Shown: positions 4,552 through 45,204 of the stretch, one piece after another | How positions within the stretch are numbered: position 1 is the first letter of the stretch | Layout of the letters: the number at the start of each line of letters is the position of its first letter | Source of the DNA: Escherichia phage vB_EcoS_L-h 1M | Length of the DNA stretch: 45,204 bases | Strand: one strand, 5' to 3' | Sequence record: NC_073086.1 | Position numbers and translations under genes: made by a program | The notes under the pieces: generated by a model | What the model saw: the letters and a program-made list of their open reading frames with translations, nothing else | The model's database searches: none | Told to the model about the DNA's origin: nothing

Positions 4552-5337
4552 TTAACGGCGGCGACGTTTACGTGGTGCTTCGTCTTCGTCGTCTTCGTCC
4601 TCATCTTCGTCATCGCGTGGCTTACGACGTTTACGAGGTTTCTCATCTTCGTCGTCTTCGTCGTCATCGCGGCGCTTGGACTTTTTGGACTTGCGCGGCT
4701 TGTCGTCCTCATCATCGTCATCACGACGTTTTGACTTCTTAGCCTTGCGCGGGCTTTCGTCTTCGTCGTCGTTGTCCAGGTCTTCGTCGGAACATGAAGA
4801 CCCGCCACCTCCGAAGGCTTCGCCGTCTTCACGGAATCGCAGACCCAGCAAGCCCGCCCCGAGTCCCTTGCCGTTGGTATTGTTCCACGCCCAAATATCA
4901 AGTGACACGTTGCAATAACAACCGGAGTAGATCTCCTGGCCTTCGATCTCGTCGCCTTCTACGGTCAGACCTTGTTCAGTCTGCTTCTCGCCGAGTGACG
5001 TTTGAATGATAGGCTGTTTGAACGATTTGGCGTTGATATACAACATGCCTTCGAATTCTTCGGTAACTTCATCGCGCTCGTCGCCGTCGCGAACTGCACA
5101 TTCCTTAGAATCCTGGGCGTAGTGGCGGTCCATCCACTTATCGGCATTCTTCTCAGATTTCAGCTTGTCGGTGAGCACTGCACGCGCTGCCGCTTCCACT
5201 TTGTCCACCTGCGGATCTTCTTTATCAAGAAGAATCACGGCACGGTATGCCGGTTTTTGTCCATCCTGTTTAGGGGTATCACGTTCCCAAATTTTCAGGA
5301 AGCATACGCGCACATTTTTCAGGTTGACTTTAGCCAT
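4552..5337 (-). CDS. ssDNA-binding-like protein (DUF2815-type) with alternating acidic/basic C-terminal repeats
   Basis: N-terminus 'MAKVNLKNVRVCF'; start ATG 5335-5337 (rc) with GAGGA RBS; C-terminal (D/E)n-PRK-(K/R)n repeated 4x. Confidence 0.55.
   Translation of the reverse strand: MAKVNLKNVRVCFLKIWERDTPKQDGQKPAYRAVILLDKEDPQVDKVEAAARAVLTDKLKSEKNADKWMDRHYAQDSKECAVRDGDERDEVTEEFEGMLYINAKSFKQPIIQTSLGEKQTEQGLTVEGDEIEGQEIYSGCYCNVSLDIWAWNNTNGKGLGAGLLGLRFREDGEAFGGGGSSCSDEDLDNDDEDESPRKAKKSKRRDDDDEDDKPRKSKKSKRRDDDEDDEDEKPRKRRKPRDDEDEDEDDEDEAPRKRRRR
4560..4800. repeat. degenerate ~60-bp tandem repeats encoding charged tail of SSB-like protein
   Basis: repeated CGTCTTCGTCnTCATC...GCGnGGCTT units; protein level acidic block + PRK + basic block x4. 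Confidence 0.45.
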
Positions 5338-7711: not shown

Positions 7712-8221
7712 TTAGTCTTCCAGTTCGAAATAGGTTTCGACGATTTCTTTCAGATCTTTGTGGAAATCTTCCACGTCGTCATCTTCCAGCTTGGCGATTG
7801 ATTTGATCTCGAACGCTTCCAGCAGGTCGTCAAATTCGTCGTTCGCATCGTCATCATCACCGCCTGCGATAATCGCGGCATACTGTTTGATTTCGTCGCG
7901 CATCTCTGCCAGCGGGTCGGCATCTTTCTTACCTTTGCCTTTCGCTGGTGCTTTTTTACCCTTCGCCGGTTTTTCGTCTTCGGCTTCATCGTCGTCATCT
8001 TCTACGACTTCTTTTTTGGCCTTACCTTTCGCCGTGGCTTTTTTACCTTTCGCCGGTGCTTCGTCTTCAGCGTCGTCATCTTCTACGACTTCTTTTTTGG
8101 CCTTAGCTGGCTTTTTATCTTCCTGCTTACCAACGGCAGCGCCCACGGTTTCATAATGTTTTGCGATGATTTCCAGTGCTACTACGCCGCGAGTGATCAG
8201 GTTTACGATTTGCTCAAACAT
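7712..8221 (-). CDS. highly acidic, lysine-rich repeat protein
   Basis: start at ATG 8219-8221 (rc) with GGAGA RBS; 'KPAKGKK...EVVEDDDDEAEDE' repeats from ~80-bp tandem DNA repeat. Confidence 0.45.
   Translation of the reverse strand: MFEQIVNLITRGVVALEIIAKHYETVGAAVGKQEDKKPAKAKKEVVEDDDAEDEAPAKGKKATAKGKAKKEVVEDDDDEAEDEKPAKGKKAPAKGKGKKDADPLAEMRDEIKQYAAIIAGGDDDDANDEFDDLLEAFEIKSIAKLEDDDVEDFHKDLKEIVETYFELED
7925..8110. repeat. tandem ~80-bp repeat inside acidic protein gene
   Basis: units beginning CGTCGTCATCTTCTACGACTTCTTTTTTGGCCTTA at 7991 and 8071. Confidence 0.5.
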
Positions 8222-8621: not shown

Positions 8622-8951
8622 ATGAATATCAAAGAAGCAATTGAAGTGTTATCTAATGCAATCCGCGGCGAAGCGGGTAAATCCTGGTATTACACAAANG
8701 NGGNGGATACTCTGTTATTTGAAGTGTCCAGATTATCGCGTGCTGAGAAGGAGCTTACCGCGAAGCTGGAACTACTCAATGGTACGGCAGCCAGCAAGCT
8801 GCAAAAGCACAATGAAGAAATGGAAGAANACAAAAAGCAGGTTATCCGTTTGCGCGACGAAGGGAAATCATGGGCGATGATTGCAGAGCTAACCGGAATT
8901 AATCAGAGCACCGTGCGATCCTGGGTACGCAATAATAAAACCTCTAAGTAA
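8622..8951 (+). CDS. HTH DNA-binding regulator
   Basis: C-terminal HTH 'SWAMIAELTGINQSTVRSWVRN'; first gene after TTGACA-N17-TAGTTT promoter. Confidence 0.6.
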   Translation: MNIKEAIEVLSNAIRGEAGKSWYYTXXXDTLLFEVSRLSRAEKELTAKLELLNGTAASKLQKHNEEMEEXKKQVIRLRDEGKSWAMIAELTGINQSTVRSWVRNNKTSK

Positions 8952-8961
8952 GGCAACGGCA

Positions 8962-11226
8962 ATGAGCTTAATTAAATTCGCAGTAACACGACCCGCTAAA
9001 AAAGGNGAAAAAGCCAGGGCGGAAAACTTCCAGATGACTACCGATGAGTTTTTCGAATTTATCAACGATGCGAAAGAAATCTCCTCGGTGCATATCAACA
9101 AGACGGAAGATAAAGCGGAGTATGCGCGCCGCAAGCGTAAGGCCGATGGCATTGTGGCTTATACCAGTGATGGGCTGCGCCGCAAGACCAGTGCCGTGGA
9201 TCGCTCGATCCTGTTCTTCGATATTGACCGTACCGACACCCGCACCTTGCGCCGCTGCCGTAAGGCGTTCATCGACGCGGGTCTTGAACACGTATTTCAC
9301 ACCACCACCGGCGACCGCCACCCGCTGAAGGGCGGCACGCGTTGCGCCCGTTTCCTGGTGCTAACGGATAAGCCCGTACCGGCGGAAGACCTGGGCCGCG
9401 TACAGTATGCACTATTACACCAACTCGGCCTGTCAGATGTGGACTTCGATGATTGCACGAAAGACACAAACCGCCTTATGTACCTGCCTCACCAGCAATC
9501 GGTTGTTAAGTGTCACTACGGCAAACGTGCCCGCGTCCGTCGTCTGATTCGCCTGGCGGATAAGCTGGGAGTGGAAAAAGAGGAAGTACGCCGCGAATTA
9601 ACCCAGGGCGATGACGGCGTGGCGGACGGCATTCTGGATTGGTGCTTCCAGGCAGGATTCGAACCGCTGTCGTCCGGTCGTGGTTATGAAGTGCCGTGCC
9701 CGAACGAACACCTGCACAGTGGTGAAGGGTCCACCGCTATCATGGTCAAGGATGGCGAGATCCGTTTCAAGTGTATGCACACTGGCAACGAGTGTTGCTC
9801 GGAACTGAACAGACACCAGCACCTGGCGCTACGTCTTATCGGGATACCGGACCACCTGAACGTCGAACCACACAACATGTCTCGTAAGCAAATCGCCGCC
9901 ATTCTCCCCGGACTGGACGACGAGGAAGTGGAATCGTGCTATGCGCATATAGTTGATGCGGTCGGTGACGGCGACGAGTACGGCGTATGTACCGACGCGG
10001 ACCTGGATAACGAACCGGTCGCACTGTTCAGTAAGCACGACCCGATCATCGAGGGGTTGATTAACTTCAAATCGACCTGGTATATGGCTGGCGAATCGAA
10101 CATCGGTAAATCGTTCTACGTGCTGGGCCAAATGGGTGCGGTTGCCGCGGGGATTCCGTTCGGAGGTGCGAAGGTCGTCCAGTCTCATTGCTTCTATTTC
10201 GACGCGGAAGGTGGTGAAGCCTCCAACCAGCGTAAGGAAGCATTGCAGATCAAATATGAGCACGACCTGGACAAGCTGCACATTATCGATCTGCAATCAC
10301 GCGGCTGGGATATCACCAGCAAATCCGGCTTGCGTGAAGTTATCAGCTTCATCAACCGCACCGCTAACGGCGAACCGGTTGGCCTGGTGGCCTTCGACTC
10401 CCTCAACCAGACTGTTGCGTTGCGGTCCGCCGATGCTAAACCGTTCGACGAGAACAACGCCAGCGATATGGGTGAAGTGGTCAAAGCGCNGAAGGCCATT
10501 GNGGAAAANACCGGNGGNNGNGNTGGNGTCANCCNCCNCCCGGNGAAGGGNGCAAACGGCAGCAGANCCCCCCNCGGGNCCGGCGCGCNGCATGGTGCTG
10601 TTGATTCTGCGTTCTTCCTTGAGCAACCGGACGACAACCAGCCGGGCCAGTTGAACCTGTATCACGAAAAGGCACGTAACGGCATCAAGCAAGCGCCGCG
10701 CGGCTTCGTCCTGCTCAAGTGCAAGGTTAAGGTGGATCTCCGCAAGTCCGAAGCGTTCGAAGCCCACCAGTCCACCAGCACCGGGCCGGACTTTGGCGAC
10801 GTCGTTGCCGGTTGGGACGTCAAGCCAATTGCCTCCACGCCACGCGACGAGACTCTTTACCTCGTACCGGTCGCCCTGGCACCGTTCGCTATTGAGCAGG
10901 CGAAGGCCGCGGGCAAAGCAGCCGTTAAGGAAGAAAACGCCGCAGGACCGCGCAACGAGAAAGAGAAAGTGCTTTATGCGGCACTGGAAAAACTGATGGA
11001 AGATAACCCGGACCATACCGGATTCAGTAAATCGGCAATTGTCCGCCAGGCTGGGCTTGCGAAAGGGGGCACATCGACGAAGGCAATAGACGATATGGTG
11101 GAGCGCGGCGTGCTAGGTTTTTATACAGATCCGCACACTGGGGCCATCTATGGGTCGTCGAATATCGTCATCAAAACAAATATACCCATCACGCTTTCGG
11201 CGACCGATGATGATTTAAAAGATTAA
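8962..11226 (+). CDS. DNA primase/helicase (primase-like N-terminus, zinc-binding region, P-loop NTPase)
   Basis: 754 aa; Walker A 'GESNIGKS'; Cys/His cluster 'CPNEHLHSGEG...CMHTGNECC'; N-run 10490-10590. Confidence 0.65.
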   Translation: MSLIKFAVTRPAKKXEKARAENFQMTTDEFFEFINDAKEISSVHINKTEDKAEYARRKRKADGIVAYTSDGLRRKTSAVDRSILFFDIDRTDTRTLRRCRKAFIDAGLEHVFHTTTGDRHPLKGGTRCARFLVLTDKPVPAEDLGRVQYALLHQLGLSDVDFDDCTKDTNRLMYLPHQQSVVKCHYGKRARVRRLIRLADKLGVEKEEVRRELTQGDDGVADGILDWCFQAGFEPLSSGRGYEVPCPNEHLHSGEGSTAIMVKDGEIRFKCMHTGNECCSELNRHQHLALRLIGIPDHLNVEPHNMSRKQIAAILPGLDDEEVESCYAHIVDAVGDGDEYGVCTDADLDNEPVALFSKHDPIIEGLINFKSTWYMAGESNIGKSFYVLGQMGAVAAGIPFGGAKVVQSHCFYFDAEGGEASNQRKEALQIKYEHDLDKLHIIDLQSRGWDITSKSGLREVISFINRTANGEPVGLVAFDSLNQTVALRSADAKPFDENNASDMGEVVKAXKAIXEXTXXXXXVXXXPXKXANGSRXPXGXGAXHGAVDSAFFLEQPDDNQPGQLNLYHEKARNGIKQAPRGFVLLKCKVKVDLRKSEAFEAHQSTSTGPDFGDVVAGWDVKPIASTPRDETLYLVPVALAPFAIEQAKAAGKAAVKEENAAGPRNEKEKVLYAALEKLMEDNPDHTGFSKSAIVRQAGLAKGGTSTKAIDDMVERGVLGFYTDPHTGAIYGSSNIVIKTNIPITLSATDDDLKD

Positions 11227-11330
11227 ATTTTGCGCGCATTGGTTGCCATTTTGAGTGTTTTTAGCTGGTCGCATTGGTTGCCGTGTGGTGTAAATATAGT
11301 GAATAGTTATGCAATAAAACTGCATAAAGT

Positions 11331-11489
11331 AAGCGGGACAAAAAGCGGGACAGACCAGGGGCGGGACAAAGCGGGACAGCACCCCTGTCCCACCCCGGAT
11401 GACGCGGCCTGGCGGGGAGCGGGACAGGCGGGACAAACCCCAGTCTTTCAGACTAGACGGGGGTCAGTTGGCCCCCTCGTCTGAGACTG
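11331..11489 (+). repeat. composite element copy A: GCGGGACA iteron array plus GC-rich stem-loop
   Basis: 6 direct + 1 inverted GGGACA(G/A) units within 11331-11428; hairpin region 11441-11489. Confidence 0.7.
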
Positions 11490-16600: not shown

Positions 16601-16670
16601 CCCCCTTAGATGGCAGGGCCGTCTCCTATGTTGCCGATGGTCGGCGCATATGCACAAAAGGGCTTATATC

Positions 16671-17222
16671 ATGGCAGAAATCAAAGTTAAGGGCCGTCGC
16701 GCTAAACTGGACGGACGAGTAGCAGTTACCCCGCGCCGTAAACCAGGCGAGCAAACAGAACATACCAATCTCGGGCCGGAGATCGAATACGGCAAGCGCC
16801 GCAGAGGTGGCAAATGTGGACGCCCTACCGACTACCGTTCCGTGTATTGTGACCAACTTCGACGCTATTTCGCCGATGCCGTAGCCTGGCAAGTTAACTA
16901 CTCCGACAAGGGTGCTGCGCAAGTAATTCCCCGCAACATGATGCCTACCTTTGGTCGCTTCGCCGCAAAGATTGGCGTAGGCGTCGCATGCCTTTATCGC
17001 TGGGCGCGCGCACATGAGGAGTTCGCCGAGGCAATGGCTGACGCTATGGAGCTACAGAAAACCTTCCTGATGGAAGCTGGCGGCGTGACCATCGCGGCGG
17101 GCTTCGCTACCTTCCTGCTTAAAGCCAACCACGGCGTCCGGGACGATGTACCGCTGGATGACGACGAAGATGATAACGGCGACGTCGTTGTGGAACCTAC
17201 CGGCAAAGGTCAGGGTGATTAA
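16671..17222 (+). CDS. terminase small subunit (putative)
   Basis: ATG 16671 with AAAGGG RBS; HTH-like 'FGRFAAKIGVGVACLYRWARAHEEF'; acidic C-terminus; directly upstream of large terminase. Confidence 0.5.
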   Translation: MAEIKVKGRRAKLDGRVAVTPRRKPGEQTEHTNLGPEIEYGKRRRGGKCGRPTDYRSVYCDQLRRYFADAVAWQVNYSDKGAAQVIPRNMMPTFGRFAAKIGVGVACLYRWARAHEEFAEAMADAMELQKTFLMEAGGVTIAAGFATFLLKANHGVRDDVPLDDDEDDNGDVVVEPTGKGQGD

Positions 17223-18607
17223 TGCGTAACTATGCGGCAGAACATCGCGCCCTTGAACGAGCGATCGCAAAGCGAAACAGACCGCCGCGCCCGACACGCG
17301 TTGCGCAGGCCGTCCGCCTTTACCAGCCTGATTGCCTTCCGCACCAGGTGGAACTACTGCGCGACACGAAGACTAAAATCATCGGCCTGTGTTCCGGCTT
17401 CGGTGGCGGTAAGTCATGGGTCGCGGCGAGAAAGGTCATCCAGCTTTTAACACTAAACCCCGGTCATGATGGCATCGTAACAGAACCGACTATTCCCCTC
17501 CTGGTTAAAATCATGTACCCGGAATTGGAAAAGGCATTCGACGAGGCGGGCTTCAGGTGGAAGTTTAACAAGCAGGACAAGATTTATAGCGTGCTGGTGA
17601 AAGGCAAGTGGACGCGCGTAATCTGTGAGTCAATGGAAAACTACACCCGCCTAATCGGGGTCAACGCCGCGTGGATTGTTGCCGATGAGTTCGATACCAC
17701 GAAACAAGACGTCGCAATGGCGGCTTACCACAAATTGCTTGGTCGTCTGCGTGCTGGCTTGGTGCGCCAGTTCGTCATCGTGTCCACGCCTGAAGGCTTC
17801 CGGGCGATGTATCAGATTTTCGAAGTGGAGAAGGATAGCCAAAAACGTTTGATCCGGGCGAAGACTACCGATAATCACCACTTACCGGCAGACTTTATCG
17901 ACACTCTGCGCAGCCAGTACCCTGCTAACCTGATTGATGCGTACCTGAACGGTATGTTTGTCAACCTTACGTCGGGCGCGGTATACAAGATGTTCAATCG
18001 TGAGGAGAACGCCAGCACCGAAGAAGTGCAGCCGGAAGACACGCTGATTATCGGGATGGACTTTAACGTCACGAAAATGGCGGCGGTCGTGTACGTCAGA
18101 CGGCAGCGCATCACCGAAAACAAGGAGTTCCGCGACGAGATTCACGCAGTGGATGAATTCGTGGACCTGTTCGATACCCCGGCTATGATTGAGGCGATCG
18201 AGGAGCGCTACCCCGATCATTGTGCTGCCGGTCGGGTCGTCGTTTACCCGGATAGCAGTGGCAAGTCTCGTAAGACTGTTAACGCATCGTCGTCCGATAT
18301 AGCGCAACTGGAAGACGCAGGCTTCGAGGTGGAATACGACAGCGTTAACCCACCTGTGAAAGACCGATTGATCGCGATGAATACGATGATGTGCAACTCG
18401 AAGGGCGTGCGCCAGTATTTTGTCAACCTGGATAAATGCCCTACACTAGCGAAATGTCTGGAACAGCAGGTTTACGACCTGAAGAAAGGCGAGCCGGATA
18501 AAACCGCCGGTGTGGACCACATGAACGATGCCGCGGGTTATCCAATTGCGCACCTGTTCCCAGTGATTCGTCCGATCGCCGTTGTTCCAACTGTAGACTT
18601 CTACTAA
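17222..18607 (+). CDS. terminase large subunit
   Basis: 461 aa; Walker A 'GFGGGKS', Walker B 'WIVADEFD'; position before portal. Confidence 0.85.
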   Translation: MRNYAAEHRALERAIAKRNRPPRPTRVAQAVRLYQPDCLPHQVELLRDTKTKIIGLCSGFGGGKSWVAARKVIQLLTLNPGHDGIVTEPTIPLLVKIMYPELEKAFDEAGFRWKFNKQDKIYSVLVKGKWTRVICESMENYTRLIGVNAAWIVADEFDTTKQDVAMAAYHKLLGRLRAGLVRQFVIVSTPEGFRAMYQIFEVEKDSQKRLIRAKTTDNHHLPADFIDTLRSQYPANLIDAYLNGMFVNLTSGAVYKMFNREENASTEEVQPEDTLIIGMDFNVTKMAAVVYVRRQRITENKEFRDEIHAVDEFVDLFDTPAMIEAIEERYPDHCAAGRVVVYPDSSGKSRKTVNASSSDIAQLEDAGFEVEYDSVNPPVKDRLIAMNTMMCNSKGVRQYFVNLDKCPTLAKCLEQQVYDLKKGEPDKTAGVDHMNDAAGYPIAHLFPVIRPIAVVPTVDFY

Positions 18608-26876: not shown

Positions 26877-26967
26877 TTTGGCGCAATTCTATGCGTGCGG
26901 TATCATTAATCCGTATATCTAAACAGGAGCGTTCATTATGGGTCGCTTAAGTAGCGAGGGGTCTTAT

Positions 26968-26992
26968 GGGGCCAGCACGGCCCCTTTTTTAT
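26968..26992 (+). terminator. rho-independent terminator between tail tube candidate and chaperone
   Basis: stem GGGGCC / GGCCCC, loop AGCAC, then T6-7. Confidence 0.6.
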
Positions 26993-27006
26993 TGGAGAAT
27001 ACCACA

Positions 27007-27683
27007 ATGGCTAAAGCACCACTCTTCACACTTGACCCTAAGCCAACCTTTAAGCTGCCGATTGAGATCCCGCGCCCTGGTGAGAACGAACCCGGCAANA
27101 TGACTTTTACCGTCCGCCACCGCCCGATCGACGAGTTTTCGCAGACCATGCAGGACACTGAACGAAAGCTATCGGAATATGACGACAATGACCCGGACGG
27201 CTTTAACGTTATGGTCGAGGCCATCATGCACGTCGCAGAAGGCTGGAATCTGCCGGACGAATTTAACGCGGAGAACGTCCGCCGCCTGGTGGTCAACTAT
27301 CCACGCGCGTTCGGTGTGTTCCACACGTCGTACTATCTCGAACTGATGGGGTTGNGNGAAAAAAACNAATTGAGGNGGCGCGNCGCTTTTNTGGCCCNCC
27401 NCCNCCCTCCGAAGATTGACCCGCAAGTTTATGGGGTGCGGCCCCCGAAGATGTTTGTCCGCCTGTTGCACTATGGCCCGACAACGCGAAGATACTCGCA
27501 GTCTTCACAGATTGCTCCACGCAATGGCGCACCGGATTTGGTGGCGCATACGGCATCGACTACGGCGTGCTGGAGTGGTTATTTAAGATGCACGGTATCG
27601 AAAACGAGCAGCGCGCGTTTAAAGATATCAAGCCGATGGAACGAATCGCGCTTGATGAGATGACGCAGCAGAACCCAGCATAG
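27007..27683 (+). CDS. tail assembly chaperone with C-terminal domain in -1 frame (G/GT-like)
   Basis: N-domain in frame of ATG 27007; slippery heptamer A_AAA_AAC 27360-27366; protein-like C-domain in -1 frame 27420-27683; N-run 27355-27411 between. Confidence 0.5.
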
Positions 27684-27687
27684 TGAA

Positions 27688-28000
27688 GCGGGACAGGCGT
27701 GGCGTCCCGTTTTGTCCCGCCTCTGCAAAACTATGTACCTACTCAATTCCACTGCATTAACTCAAAACGGGACAGGCGGGACGTCCCCCTTTGTCCCGCC
27801 CCTCAAAAGTGAATGGCTATGCGGTTTTTCTGCATTAAACAAACGGGACAGAAAGCGGGACAGAATGAGGCGGGACAAAGCGGGACAGCACCCCTGTCCC
27901 AGTCAGTGCTGCCGCTGGTTTTTGCCGATCGGGACAGGCGGGACAAAGCCCAGTCTTTCANACNANACGGGGGNCAACGGCCCCCCTCGTCTGAGACTGA
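27688..28000 (+). repeat. composite element copy B: expanded GCGGGACA array plus the same stem-loop
   Basis: at least 10 direct and 5 inverted GGGAC units; shares exact 31-mer with copy A; hairpin has N calls. Confidence 0.7.
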
Positions 28001-28067
28001 ATAAGGTTTGTTTTAAAATCGCTGATACAATATCCATCGGCAACTGCATAAAAAAGGGGACTGCATT

Positions 28068-28409
28068 ATGGCAGATCAAGCGGCAGGCATCATGATGAAG
28101 GCTGATGTTGCACAAATCAGAACGGCAAATACTGTGCTGGACTCCTTCGCACAGAAATCCGAGAACACAGAAAACAAGATGAAGAAATTAAACGACACCC
28201 TCGGCAAATCCAAAAAGGTGACGAGTGACGCCGCGGGCGGAATGGAGAAGCTCGCGACTGAATCGCAGCGCGCAGCCGATGGCATGACAAAACAGGAGCG
28301 ACTTGCCAACAGGTTAGGCATGTCGACCAAAAACCTGGGCTTTGCCTCGCGTAACGCCGCATTCCAGTTACAGGATATCGCAGTTACGCTTGAGATGGGG
28401 ATGCCTTGA
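28068..28409 (+). pseudogene. tape measure N-terminal duplicate copy ending in in-frame TGA
   Basis: 113 codons, ~90% identical to 28794 onward; TGA at 28407-28409 where copy 2 has GTG; same frame as downstream ORF. Confidence 0.4.
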
Positions 28410-29519
28410 CACCGCGTCATGCTTCAGCAGTTACCGCAGCTAACTGGGGCGTTCGGCGGACTGGGTAACACGCTGCGTTTTGTTGCGGGCTTCCTCGGCC
28501 CAGTAGGGGTCGGCCTTGCCGCCGTAACGGCAACGTTAGGCGTGGGCGTGGCAATTACGTCCCNCNNGGAGAACNANANCCCCCCGCTTAACAAGACGCT
28601 GGCACTTTCCGGTAACATTTCCGGCCTGACGGCAAACCAGATCCTGGTGCTATCTGAGAACGCCGAGCGCATGGGCGGGTCGTTCCGCAAGACGCGTGAC
28701 ACAATCCAGGCGCTGGCGGCGGCGGGTGTGAAAGCGGGTGGTGACTTCGGCGCACTGGCGAAAGTGGTGAATGACTTTGCGAAGGTGTCCAGCATGGCAG
28801 ATCAGGCAGCGGGCATCACGCTCAAGGCGGACGTCGCGCAAATTAAAACGGCTAATACTGTGCTGGACACATTCGCGCAGAAATCCGAGAACACAGAACA
28901 GAAAGTAAAGAAATTAAACGACACACTCGGCAAGTCGAAAAAGGTTACTGGCGACGCCGCGGGCGGAATGGAAAAGTTAGCGACTGAATCGCAGCGCGCC
29001 GCCGACGGCATGACGAAACAGGAGCGACTAGCCAGCCGATTAGGCATGTCGACCAAAAACCTGGGATTTGCTTCACGGAACGCGGCATTCCAGTTACAGG
29101 ATATTGCGGTAACGCTTGAGATGGGTATGCCGGTGCACCGCGTCATGCTTCAGCAGTTACCACAGCTAACCGGCGCATTCGGCGGATTAGGTAACACGCT
29201 GCGTTATGTTGCGGGCTTCCTCGGCCCAGTAGGGATCGGACTTGCGGCAGTAACGGCGACATTAGGCGTGGGCGTGGCAATCACGTCACGGGCAGAGAAC
29301 CAGGTAGCCGCGCTTAATAAGACGCTGGCGCTGTCCGGTAATATTTCAGGCCTCACAGCTAACCAGATCCTTGTGCTGTCCGAGAACGCTGAGCGCATGG
29401 GCGGGTCATTTCGCAAGACGCGTGACACAATCCAGGCGCTGGCGGCGGCGGGTGTGAAAGCGGGTGGTGACTTCGGCGCATTGGCTAAGGTAGTTAATGA
29501 CTTTGCGAAGGTGTCCAGC
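28068..29519 (+). repeat. 726-bp in-frame tandem duplication at 5' end of tape measure gene
   Basis: 28068-28793 vs 28794-29519, both begin ATGGCAGATCA; ~90% identical, mostly synonymous. Confidence 0.75.
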
Positions 29520-43656: not shown

Positions 43657-43684
43657 ATTAAAAAGGGCGTCCAACCGGACACCC
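43657..43684 (-). terminator. rho-independent terminator
   Basis: 8-bp stem with one G-U pair, loop of 4, T-tract on minus strand; 17 nt before RBS of 43398..43640. Confidence 0.5.
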
Positions 43685-43693
43685 TTAAGATAA

Positions 43694-43720
43694 TGCAACC
43701 AATATGATTATGCAACCAAT
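43694..43720 (-). promoter_or_regulatory. two direct copies of motif (rc ATTGGTTGCA) upstream of terminator and small membrane gene
   Basis: TGCAACCAAT at 43694-43703 and 43711-43720. Confidence 0.4.
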
Positions 43721-44044
43721 TTACGAATAAAAATTTGGGTCGCGCGCTACGTCTACCAGATACAGATTGCTCATGCGGTTGCCGTAGTGCCCTGGTGTGC
43801 GCTGGCGGCACACAACGGCGAAGCCTGGGGGAATTGTATTGCCCGTCTCGATAATCCACGCCACGCGTGCGCCAGACAGCGTCTTGCCGTTGTATTCGAT
43901 GCGCGTGCCACCATCGGCAGTGTTAAGGTTGCCAATCTTACAGCCTGTGGACTTCAGGCGAATGACACCGGTCTTGCTGTCGTAGGAAAAAAGCTGATTG
44001 GTCATTGCCACTGAAAAGTCGATTGCGTCGAATGCAGTATTCAT
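43721..44044 (-). CDS. HNH homing-endonuclease-like protein
   Basis: 'FSYDSKTGVIRLKSTG...NGKTLSGARVAWIIETGNTIPPG...GHYGNRMSNL' resembles HNH_3-type phage endonucleases. Confidence 0.5.
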   Translation of the reverse strand: MNTAFDAIDFSVAMTNQLFSYDSKTGVIRLKSTGCKIGNLNTADGGTRIEYNGKTLSGARVAWIIETGNTIPPGFAVVCRQRTPGHYGNRMSNLYLVDVARDPNFYS

Positions 44045-44751: not shown

Positions 44752-45204
44752 TTGCGCGCCTTTTTAGCTTTCATGTATTCCATCAAGTCGTCCTGAATAT
44801 CTCGCTTACTGTCGCGACGTTCGGCGACCAGTTCATCCAGTGTCCCGCGCGCCTGGATAATGTAGACGAATACCGGACGAGGGTGTCCGGCTTGCATCTG
44901 GCGAACCGGCCCTATACGCTCCACAATCTGCGAAAAGTGCTCATAGTTCCAGGTGTCTGAGAAGATAGCAAGGTGGTGCCCCCCATCCTGCAGGTTAAGT
45001 CCGTGACCCGCTGACGCTGGGTGTGCAAACATGATGGGGATCTCGCCCCTGTTCCACGCTTCCATATCCTTATTTCCTTGCTTACCCTTACCCATCGCTA
45101 CGCCGTGCGGGAATTTCTTCTTGAGACGCGCCAGATCATGCTTGTACTGGTATGCGACGAGCAACGGCGCGCCGTTCAACTCCTCCACGATACTTTCCAG
45201 CGCG
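44748..45204 (-). CDS. SNF2/DEAD-like helicase, C-terminal part (5' part at 1..1083)
   Basis: translation continues that of window start ('...EELNGAPLLVAYQYKHDLARLKKKFPHG' at both ends); open at window end. Confidence 0.7.
   Translation of the reverse strand, partial: ALESIVEELNGAPLLVAYQYKHDLARLKKKFPHGVAMGKGKQGNKDMEAWNRGEIPIMFAHPASAGHGLNLQDGGHHLAIFSDTWNYEHFSQIVERIGPVRQMQAGHPRPVFVYIIQARGTLDELVAERRDSKRDIQDDLMEYMKAKKARK

Follow-up and report, generated by a model that had tools for sequence, protein, structure and literature searches.

The alpha protein of P4 is a primase-helicase whose C-terminal DNA-binding domain reads octamer iterons (TGTTCACC) at ori and crr; one of these two cis sites adjoins the gene of the protein itself, and the helicase is of the SF3 (D5-type) class. 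In phage lambda, the origin lies inside gene O, where iterons, an AT-rich region and a palindrome stand together. In SaPI satellites of Staphylococcus aureus, the C-terminal winged-helix domain (WHD) of Rep reads iterons of 5–6 nt that lie immediately downstream of rep (PMC9371898). The Rep and PriRep systems have six to twelve iterons after the rep ORF, together with an AT-rich region and opposed iterons, and PriRep5 is fused to a primase (PMC9371898). Bacillus phage SPP1, a siphovirus of ~44 kb, has two similar origin sequences made up of repeats and AT-rich DNA, one in the replication region and one among the late structural genes. Its gp38 protein binds the repeats at oriL and at oriR, the latter interrupting the late genes (PMC6316719), and gp38 bound at oriR is proposed to stall replication forks and to trigger the theta-to-sigma switch (PMC6316719; PMC3485210).

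The locus that we compare with these systems belongs to Escherichia phage vB_EcoS_L-h 1M (NC_073086.1), whose sequence of 45,204 nucleotides was analysed as a whole and is referred to here as the window. The related record MT478993.1 is Escherichia phage vB_EcoS_011D5, a 45.2-kb siphovirus of the genus Dhillonvirus (HK578-like). Dhillonviruses are widely used in phage-therapy and defence-system studies; a search of the literature for the motif described below as an iteron, or for a Dhillonvirus origin, yielded no description of either. A preliminary description of the sequence had placed at positions 11331–11489 a composite element, copy A, in which six direct GCGGGACA(A/G) units and an inverted one are followed by a GC-rich stem-loop, and the element is present there as claimed. 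Comparison of this sequence with its relatives makes it likely, in our judgement, that copy A is a replication origin of the iteron type and that its reader is the C-terminal tail, modelled as a winged helix, of the helicase-primase encoded just before it. The features of this part of the window are the following.

8622–8951: gene for a small HTH protein that resembles sigma-70 region 4
8962–11226, plus strand: helicase-primase gene (754 amino acids), the proposed initiator; Pfam AAA_25 at residues 357–517; PHROG 3228, 'replicative helicase-primase'
10957–11172, plus strand: coding region for the C-terminal winged-helix tail (about residues 666–737, from a structure model), the proposed iteron-recognition domain
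11290–11332, no strand assigned: AT-rich block (computed A+T about 70%) with GTGAATAGTTATGCA, just upstream of the units
11333–11379, plus strand: putative iterons 1–4, four direct GCGGGACA(A/G) units, kept in all natural copies and swapped in concert in sister lineages
11385–11392, minus strand: inverted degenerate unit CTGTCCCA, which forms a small palindrome with unit 4 and is degenerate in relatives
11393–11418, no strand assigned: variable 26-nt spacer, conserved in length, its sequence not common to copies A and B
11419–11436, plus strand: putative iterons 6–7, an adjacent direct pair, GCGGGACAG GCGGGACAA
11440–11489, plus strand: GC-rich stem-loop with conserved arms and a variable loop, from an RNA minimum-energy fold

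The direct GCGGGACA(A/G) units of copy A start at 11333, 11345, 11361, 11371, 11419 and 11428, and the inverted CTGTCCC at 11386–11392 completes, with unit 4, the palindrome GGGACAG-CACCC-CTGTCCC. The reported excess of GGGACA was confirmed: copy A contains seven occurrences in 159 bp where 0.067 would be expected, with a probability for seven or more of about 1e-12. Over both strands of the window the hexamer occurs 28 times compared with 19.1 expected from shuffles, and seven of these occurrences fall in copy A and 11 in the copy B region described below. The spacing of one helical turn that had been proposed for the units holds only approximately, the unit spacings in copy A being 12, 16, 10 and 9 bp. 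The palindrome is perfect in the window, as had been stated, but it is not conserved, since the inverted unit is degenerate or absent in many natural relatives. In a set of about 30 natural copies taken from IMG/VR, both copies of the element keep their six direct units and an AT-rich stretch with GTGAATAGTTATGCA stands ahead of each array, whereas the inverted unit reads TGTCCC, CGTCCC or AGTCCC or is lost. This degeneracy indicates that the perfect palindrome is not a conserved feature of the element; opposed units like this one are typical of GGGACA arrays in unrelated phages. A search in related phages had been proposed as a check, and all of the related GenBank records (157 of 157) carry the element, nearly always at two places. 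Between the window and MT478993.1 there are 3173 substitutions and 78 N bases, and copy A is identical in the two.

The AT-rich block at 11290–11332 may serve for unwinding or for the binding of an accessory factor. Ahead of copy B, the corresponding block has an A+T content of only 54% in the window, and the GTGAATAGTTATGCA 15-mer precedes copy B as well; two further occurrences of this 15-mer lie in the homologous gap of Salmonella phage FSL SP-031, whose iterons are different. Within GTGAATAGTTATGCA there is an imperfect inverted repeat, GAATA-NN-TAT(T/G)C (11298–11315 and 27808–27825 in the window; 13780–13815 in L155, which is FSL SP-031), and this repeat is conserved between Dhillonvirus and Cornellvirus despite their different iterons. 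Its reverse complement, CTATTCAC, resembles the DnaA box (TTATNCACA, 7 of 9 positions), and the repeat may be a site for a host factor.

The stem-loop that closes the element had been described as conserved, and in all Dhillonvirus copies its arms are invariant and variation is confined to the loop. Folded as DNA, the hairpin of copy A has a predicted energy of −12.4 kcal/mol (z = −3.2). In sister lineages, 5 of the 16 predicted stem pairs are preserved through double changes, for example from GGGGG/CCCCC to GGGAG/CTCCC, and in more distant lineages a hairpin of a G-run and a C-run is found at the equivalent relative place. The hairpin may be a conserved structural part of the origin, acting as a cruciform, as a single-strand initiation site or as an insulator at the transcriptional or RNA level; a structural role is possible in either DNA or RNA.

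The protein proposed to read the units has a core of the RepA/DnaB type (AAA_25) and is annotated as a replicative helicase-primase in MT478993.1 too, and the array of copy A starts 105 nt past its stop codon. A structure model predicts a winged-helix domain at its C-terminus. Searching the PDB by sequence with the helicase-primase returned no relative at E≤0.01, and a protein search with the 112-residue tail alone gave only two matches. Judged from alignments of the orthologs, the tail is among the least conserved parts of the protein: its identity is 22–40% compared with 60–80% in the helicase core, and between L151 and L398 the tails are 50–52% identical, with up to 96% identity elsewhere in the protein. 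The correspondence between recognition helix and unit is not one-to-one, as two of the proteins (P0015 and P0013) have a similar helix 3 and different units.

This arrangement resembles that of SaPI Rep/PriRep in that the helicase would itself be the initiator, would carry a C-terminal winged-helix domain and has the iterons downstream of its own gene. On the other hand, the Dhillonvirus helicase is of the RecA-fold RepA/DnaB type (AAA_25), whereas SaPI Rep is AAA+/MCM-like, and the two lack sequence homology; the likeness therefore concerns how the helicase-primase works and not family membership. The layouts differ as well. The units of the Dhillonvirus array mostly point one way and the AT-rich block precedes them, whereas in the SaPI this block lies at the centre of the array, and the Dhillonvirus locus adds a conserved GC-rich hairpin and a distant second copy, in a lytic coliphage as opposed to a SaPI satellite. 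P4 alpha is similar in being a primase-helicase with two cis sites, but its helicase type and its iteron are different.

The strongest indication of what reads the units came from comparison across lineages. The helicase-primase has many orthologs, and in every lineage examined we found the same order of a small HTH gene, the helicase-primase gene and a non-coding gap of 290–650 bp, which contains a repeat array in most of these lineages. In sister lineages whose helicase-primases are 65–69% identical, the scaffold of the gap is kept, with its ATTGGTTGCC motifs, AT-rich block, paired units and stem-loop, while all units are exchanged together by lineage: GCGGGACA in L151 and L406, GTGTGGCA in L398, GTGTGCCA in L402 and GGTGCCA in L403. 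The paired arrangement of iterons 6 and 7 is retained with the swapped units in L398 and L402. In distant lineages (42–47% identity), the motifs in the gap are GGGGGAGA (FSL SP-031), ACTCGCAA (two lineages), GGGGATCA, AGGGACAA and TTCCGCACA, and in FSL SP-031 seven of the nine GGGGAGA copies in the genome fall within the 150 bp that follow the helicase-primase gene. That all units change in concert while the scaffold stays the same indicates a sequence-specific protein as their reader, and such a pattern is expected where one co-evolving protein reads the sites. As far as the compared sequences indicate, the unit sequence co-varies with the tail of the helicase-primase, and the neighbouring HTH protein is unchanged. 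Natural iteron swaps together with initiators that are ~70% identical would also offer a ready-made system in which to follow the evolution of winged-helix specificity.

A second line of evidence is independent of Dhillonvirus. IMG/VR was searched for a DNA pattern of two GCGGGACA units within 8 nt, without the use of protein information, and at least 120 stretches were obtained; dense clusters were defined as at least six GGGACA/TGTCCC per 200 bp. Among the stretches listed, 52 of 120 contained a dense cluster, almost none with nucleotide similarity to phage vB_EcoS_L-h 1M, whereas a composition-matched permuted motif, which likewise gave at least 120 stretches, had a dense cluster in 3 of the 120 listed. 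In unrelated phages, an array typically consists of several direct units in a row and, after them, opposed units that enclose a short palindrome with no mismatches. Of the 52 dense clusters among the matches listed, 41 abut or lie within genes for replication helicases or initiators. These comprise, again among the matches listed, 23 clusters that abut the 3' end of a gene for a RepA-type (AAA_25) helicase or prim-pol-helicase, mostly 2–50 nt from the stop codon; 14 that lie inside a gene called 'replication initiation O-like / DnaD-like helicase loader' by PHROGs (L024, L031, L039, L043, L046, L048, L055, L061, L062, L070, L085, L096, L102 and L109); and four that abut other primase or helicase genes, including that of an SF3 P4-alpha-like protein. 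The remaining 11 of the matches listed are three Dhillonvirus copies and eight clusters without a resolved context. The difference between 52 and 3 of 120 leads us to regard GGGACA arrays as a recurrent companion of phage replication initiators.

The O-like genes with internal units adjoin genes for helicases of the DnaB or gp4 type, and the units within them are read in different frames as ...SGTAAGQQRDK..., a linker after an N-terminal winged-helix-like domain. These 14 genes copy the layout of the lambda ori within gene O; the Dhillonvirus origin would differ in being intergenic, with the tail of the helicase-primase as its proposed reader in place of the O-type initiator that reads the lambda ori. 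In all, GGGACA accompanies at least four initiator architectures that have no detectable homology between their DNA-binding parts, namely RepA-type helicases with a 'KKAF' tail, O-like initiators, an SF3 P4-alpha-like primase-helicase and the Dhillonvirus helicase-primase. The P4-alpha type of protein stands beside a GGGACA array in only one unrelated contig (L079) among the matches listed. Profile-profile comparison of the Dhillonvirus tail, the 'KKAF' tails and the N-domains of the O-like proteins gave no significant similarity, and the idea that one shared domain lies behind the shared motif was dropped on this ground. If GGGACA were a public iteron, origin cassettes would have to be exchanged frequently between replication modules, or the modules would have a common reader.

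Bacterial genomes were scanned as well, with a triple GCGGGACA. The matches were mostly perfect micro- or minisatellites of high-GC genomes, and 7 of the 120 matches listed lie next to replication modules. Tandem repeats of the types (GGGACAGC)n, (GGGACAGGC)n and (GGGACACGC)n, which contain GCGGGACA, are common in high-GC genomes of many phyla (L278–L397); the GCGGGACA tandem repeats of bacterial genomes are unrelated to the iteron arrays of phages. A universal host factor as the reader of GCGGGACA had also been considered, and found no support in a scan dominated by simple tandem repeats.

Of the roles first suggested for the element, that of replication origin iterons is thus the one supported, both by the concerted unit swaps that track the tail and by the arrays that accompany initiators in unrelated phages. 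The comparison strongly suggests that the GCGGGACA units are iterons. The C-terminal tail, winged-helix in its modelled fold, would bind them, and several protomers bound to the array would assemble a hexameric helicase of the RepA/DnaB type beside it, at the AT-rich block or in the region of the hairpin. If SaPI Rep/PriRep and P4 alpha are a guide, the assembled helicase would then open the DNA and its own primase part would prime synthesis, so that the protein would be a self-loading initiator-helicase; copy B would serve as a second site at which the initiator binds. The GC skew of the window gives no information on an origin, having its minimum at the strand switch at 8.2–8.6 kb and following gene orientation. 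An origin at 11.3–11.5 kb, a second site at 27.7–28.0 kb and the tail of the helicase-primase as the likely reader are directly testable targets, and placing the origin would help phage engineering, the reading of coverage profiles and the understanding of defence systems that sense replication. Two features of this locus deserve particular attention, namely the natural concerted swaps of iterons and the conserved second copy within the tail operon.

Copy B lies in the tail-gene operon, where the following features were found.

27688–27799, no strand assigned: two palindromic double-unit modules (27688–27720 and 27768–27799), inverted repeats that are also present in natural relatives
27843–27946, plus strand: copy B array, with six direct units (27844, 27856, 27871, 27881, 27930 and 27939) and one inverted unit (27895)
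27950–27999, plus strand: copy B stem-loop, with four N bases in the window and intact in MT478993.1 at 28681–28730

The whole element spans 27843–27999 in the window and 28571–28730 in MT478993.1. It lies 16.5 kb from copy A, and the two copies are 77–100% identical over ~190 bp. The palindromic double-unit modules stand directly past the stop codon of the major tail gene, upstream of copy B. Salmonella phage FSL SP-031 has no copy B and no second array, which implies that copy B arose after the split from the Cornellvirus lineage; it is a Dhillonvirus-specific duplicate of the copy A binding array.

With copy A among the replication genes and copy B among the late genes, the phage follows the layout of SPP1, where the second sequence is 13 kb away compared with 16.5 kb in the Dhillonvirus phage. 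The machinery is different: SPP1 has a separate initiator, loader and DnaB-type helicase (gp38, gp39 and gp40) and its oriL lies inside gene 38, whereas in Dhillonvirus the helicase-primase itself apparently includes the initiator function and the putative origin lies between genes. Sequence similarity to SPP1 is lacking. By this analogy, copy B is most likely a second initiator-binding site, either a second origin or a protein-bound fork barrier of the kind proposed for the oriR of SPP1, and its layout would extend the idea of oriL and oriR to an enterobacterial siphovirus. A bolder version, about which we have rather more doubt than confidence, is that GGGACA is a widely shared 'public' iteron and that copy B, as a second origin or as a programmed fork barrier with the initiator bound to it, switches the mode of replication. 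If true, coliphages would have their first example of such a site.

Among the alternatives to an origin, an element acting through RNA survives best, although we consider it unlikely. The stem-loop would be a terminator, an attenuator or a put-like cis-acting RNA, and the GGGACA repeats would be RNA hairpins or protein-binding elements that modulate elongation, with copy A at the end of the early operon and copy B after the major tail gene. The two copies are indeed co-oriented with transcription and lie at operon boundaries, and in siphoviruses attenuation is often found past the major tail gene. The hairpin is stable, with some covariation in its pairs, and some GenBank depositors have annotated a 'terminator' at this place. 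However, the test for an intrinsic terminator found the hairpin without a U-tract past the stem, the 3' sequence being CATAAAATCC in copy A and AATAAGGTTTG in copy B, and a scan with promoter and terminator consensus sequences around copy A called no terminator at the hairpin. Nor did any part of the window match an Rfam family at the gathering threshold. The direct repeats are unable to pair with one another, and the only palindrome is not conserved. Moreover, the exchange of all units in concert on an unchanged scaffold points to a sequence-specific protein reader, and the arrays of unrelated phages have units in either orientation, some of them within coding sequence, which speaks against the earlier suggestion of an RNA element acting on elongation as far as the repeats are concerned. 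The same consensus scan gave one weak promoter-like site inside the hairpin of copy A that is not conserved in copy B, and a tRNA scan of the window found none.

That the arrays are terminase recognition sites, of the pac type or similar to cosB, at which DNA packaging starts, is very improbable. Direct repeats with a palindrome do resemble the layouts of cosB and cosN; in some unrelated phages the array stands between the helicase gene and the terminase genes, at the boundary of the replication and late modules, and in L003 a small terminase gene is ~0.9 kb from the array. Cohesive ends of 10 nt, ATCTTAAGGG, have been reported for the Dhillonvirus EE09 (PMC10673088). This sequence occurs once in the window, on the minus strand at 43682–43691, far from both copies, and the terminase genes (16650–18607, with terS at 16650) are 5 kb from copy A; both positions tell against terminase or pac recognition, which had been among the roles first suggested. 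In the unrelated phages, furthermore, the arrays mostly keep within 2–50 nt of the helicase stop codon while their distance to the packaging genes is variable, and in 14 loci the units lie inside the initiator gene. The central palindromes CCCTTAAGGG of the unrelated arrays resemble the core of the Dhillonvirus cos, and on account of these centres they were considered as cos sites themselves, which is unlikely. In a few GenBank records the first or last position falls within the stem-loop of a copy, as in NC_073074.1 (UAE_MI-01) at position 1 and PP759150.1 (HH3) at its end, but such ends are expected from assembly breaks at a duplicate of 190 bp, and they are most simply explained in this way by the ~190-bp repeat that copies A and B form.

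The match to the cos sequence at 43682–43691 lies in the gap that separates an HNH endonuclease gene from the gene after it, and two ATTGGTTGCAT motifs flank it (43660–43725). The sequence at this place, GGACACCCTTAAG, is similar to a half-site of the palindromes GGGACAcaCCCTTAAGGGtgTGTCCC in GGGACA arrays of unrelated phages.

It is equally far-fetched that the units are operators through which the HTH protein (8622–8951) switches the genes downstream of each copy on or off: its gene is immediately upstream of the helicase-primase gene in conserved synteny, and the array regions are large non-coding gaps with promoter-like motifs, but its recognition helix (STVRSWVRN) is identical in five lineages whose units are GCGGGACA, GTGTGGCA, GTGTGCCA or GGTGCCA, which makes this regulator an unlikely reader of the units, 46 unrelated GGGACA loci contained no homolog of it, and ATTGGTTGC, invariant across those lineages, is the better candidate operator. 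The ATTGGTTGC motif occurs 13 times in the window compared with 0.5 expected (at 1580, 8425, 11238, 11273, 11554, 11644, 11675, 12229, 22823, 22837, 41797, 43695 and 43712), always in intergenic or divergent-promoter control regions, and five of the copies flank copy A. Its distribution makes it a candidate operator or promoter element for the HTH protein that resembles sigma-70 region 4. In lineages whose HTH gene is of the Cro type, GTTGGnnGC variants take its place.

Some properties of the window sequence itself were also seen in the comparison with MT478993.1. Positions 26941–28793 of the window align to 27667–29519 of that record, that is, with an offset of 726 bp. This offset indicates that window 28068–28793 duplicates 28794–29519 (5' part of the tape-measure region) at 86–88% identity, and the duplication explains all repeats with a spacing of 726 bp in the window; the mis-registered block looks like the product of a reference-guided or chimeric assembly. 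A direct repeat of 115 bp at the sequence ends (1–115 and 45090–45204), 100% identical in MT478993.1 and 91% identical in the window, is probably the overlap left from assembling a circular or circularly joined genome. Repeated stretches of the CTTCGTCGTC type are found within two minus-strand ORFs (4568–4788 and 7962–8108), where they would encode acidic repeats rich in Asp and Glu.
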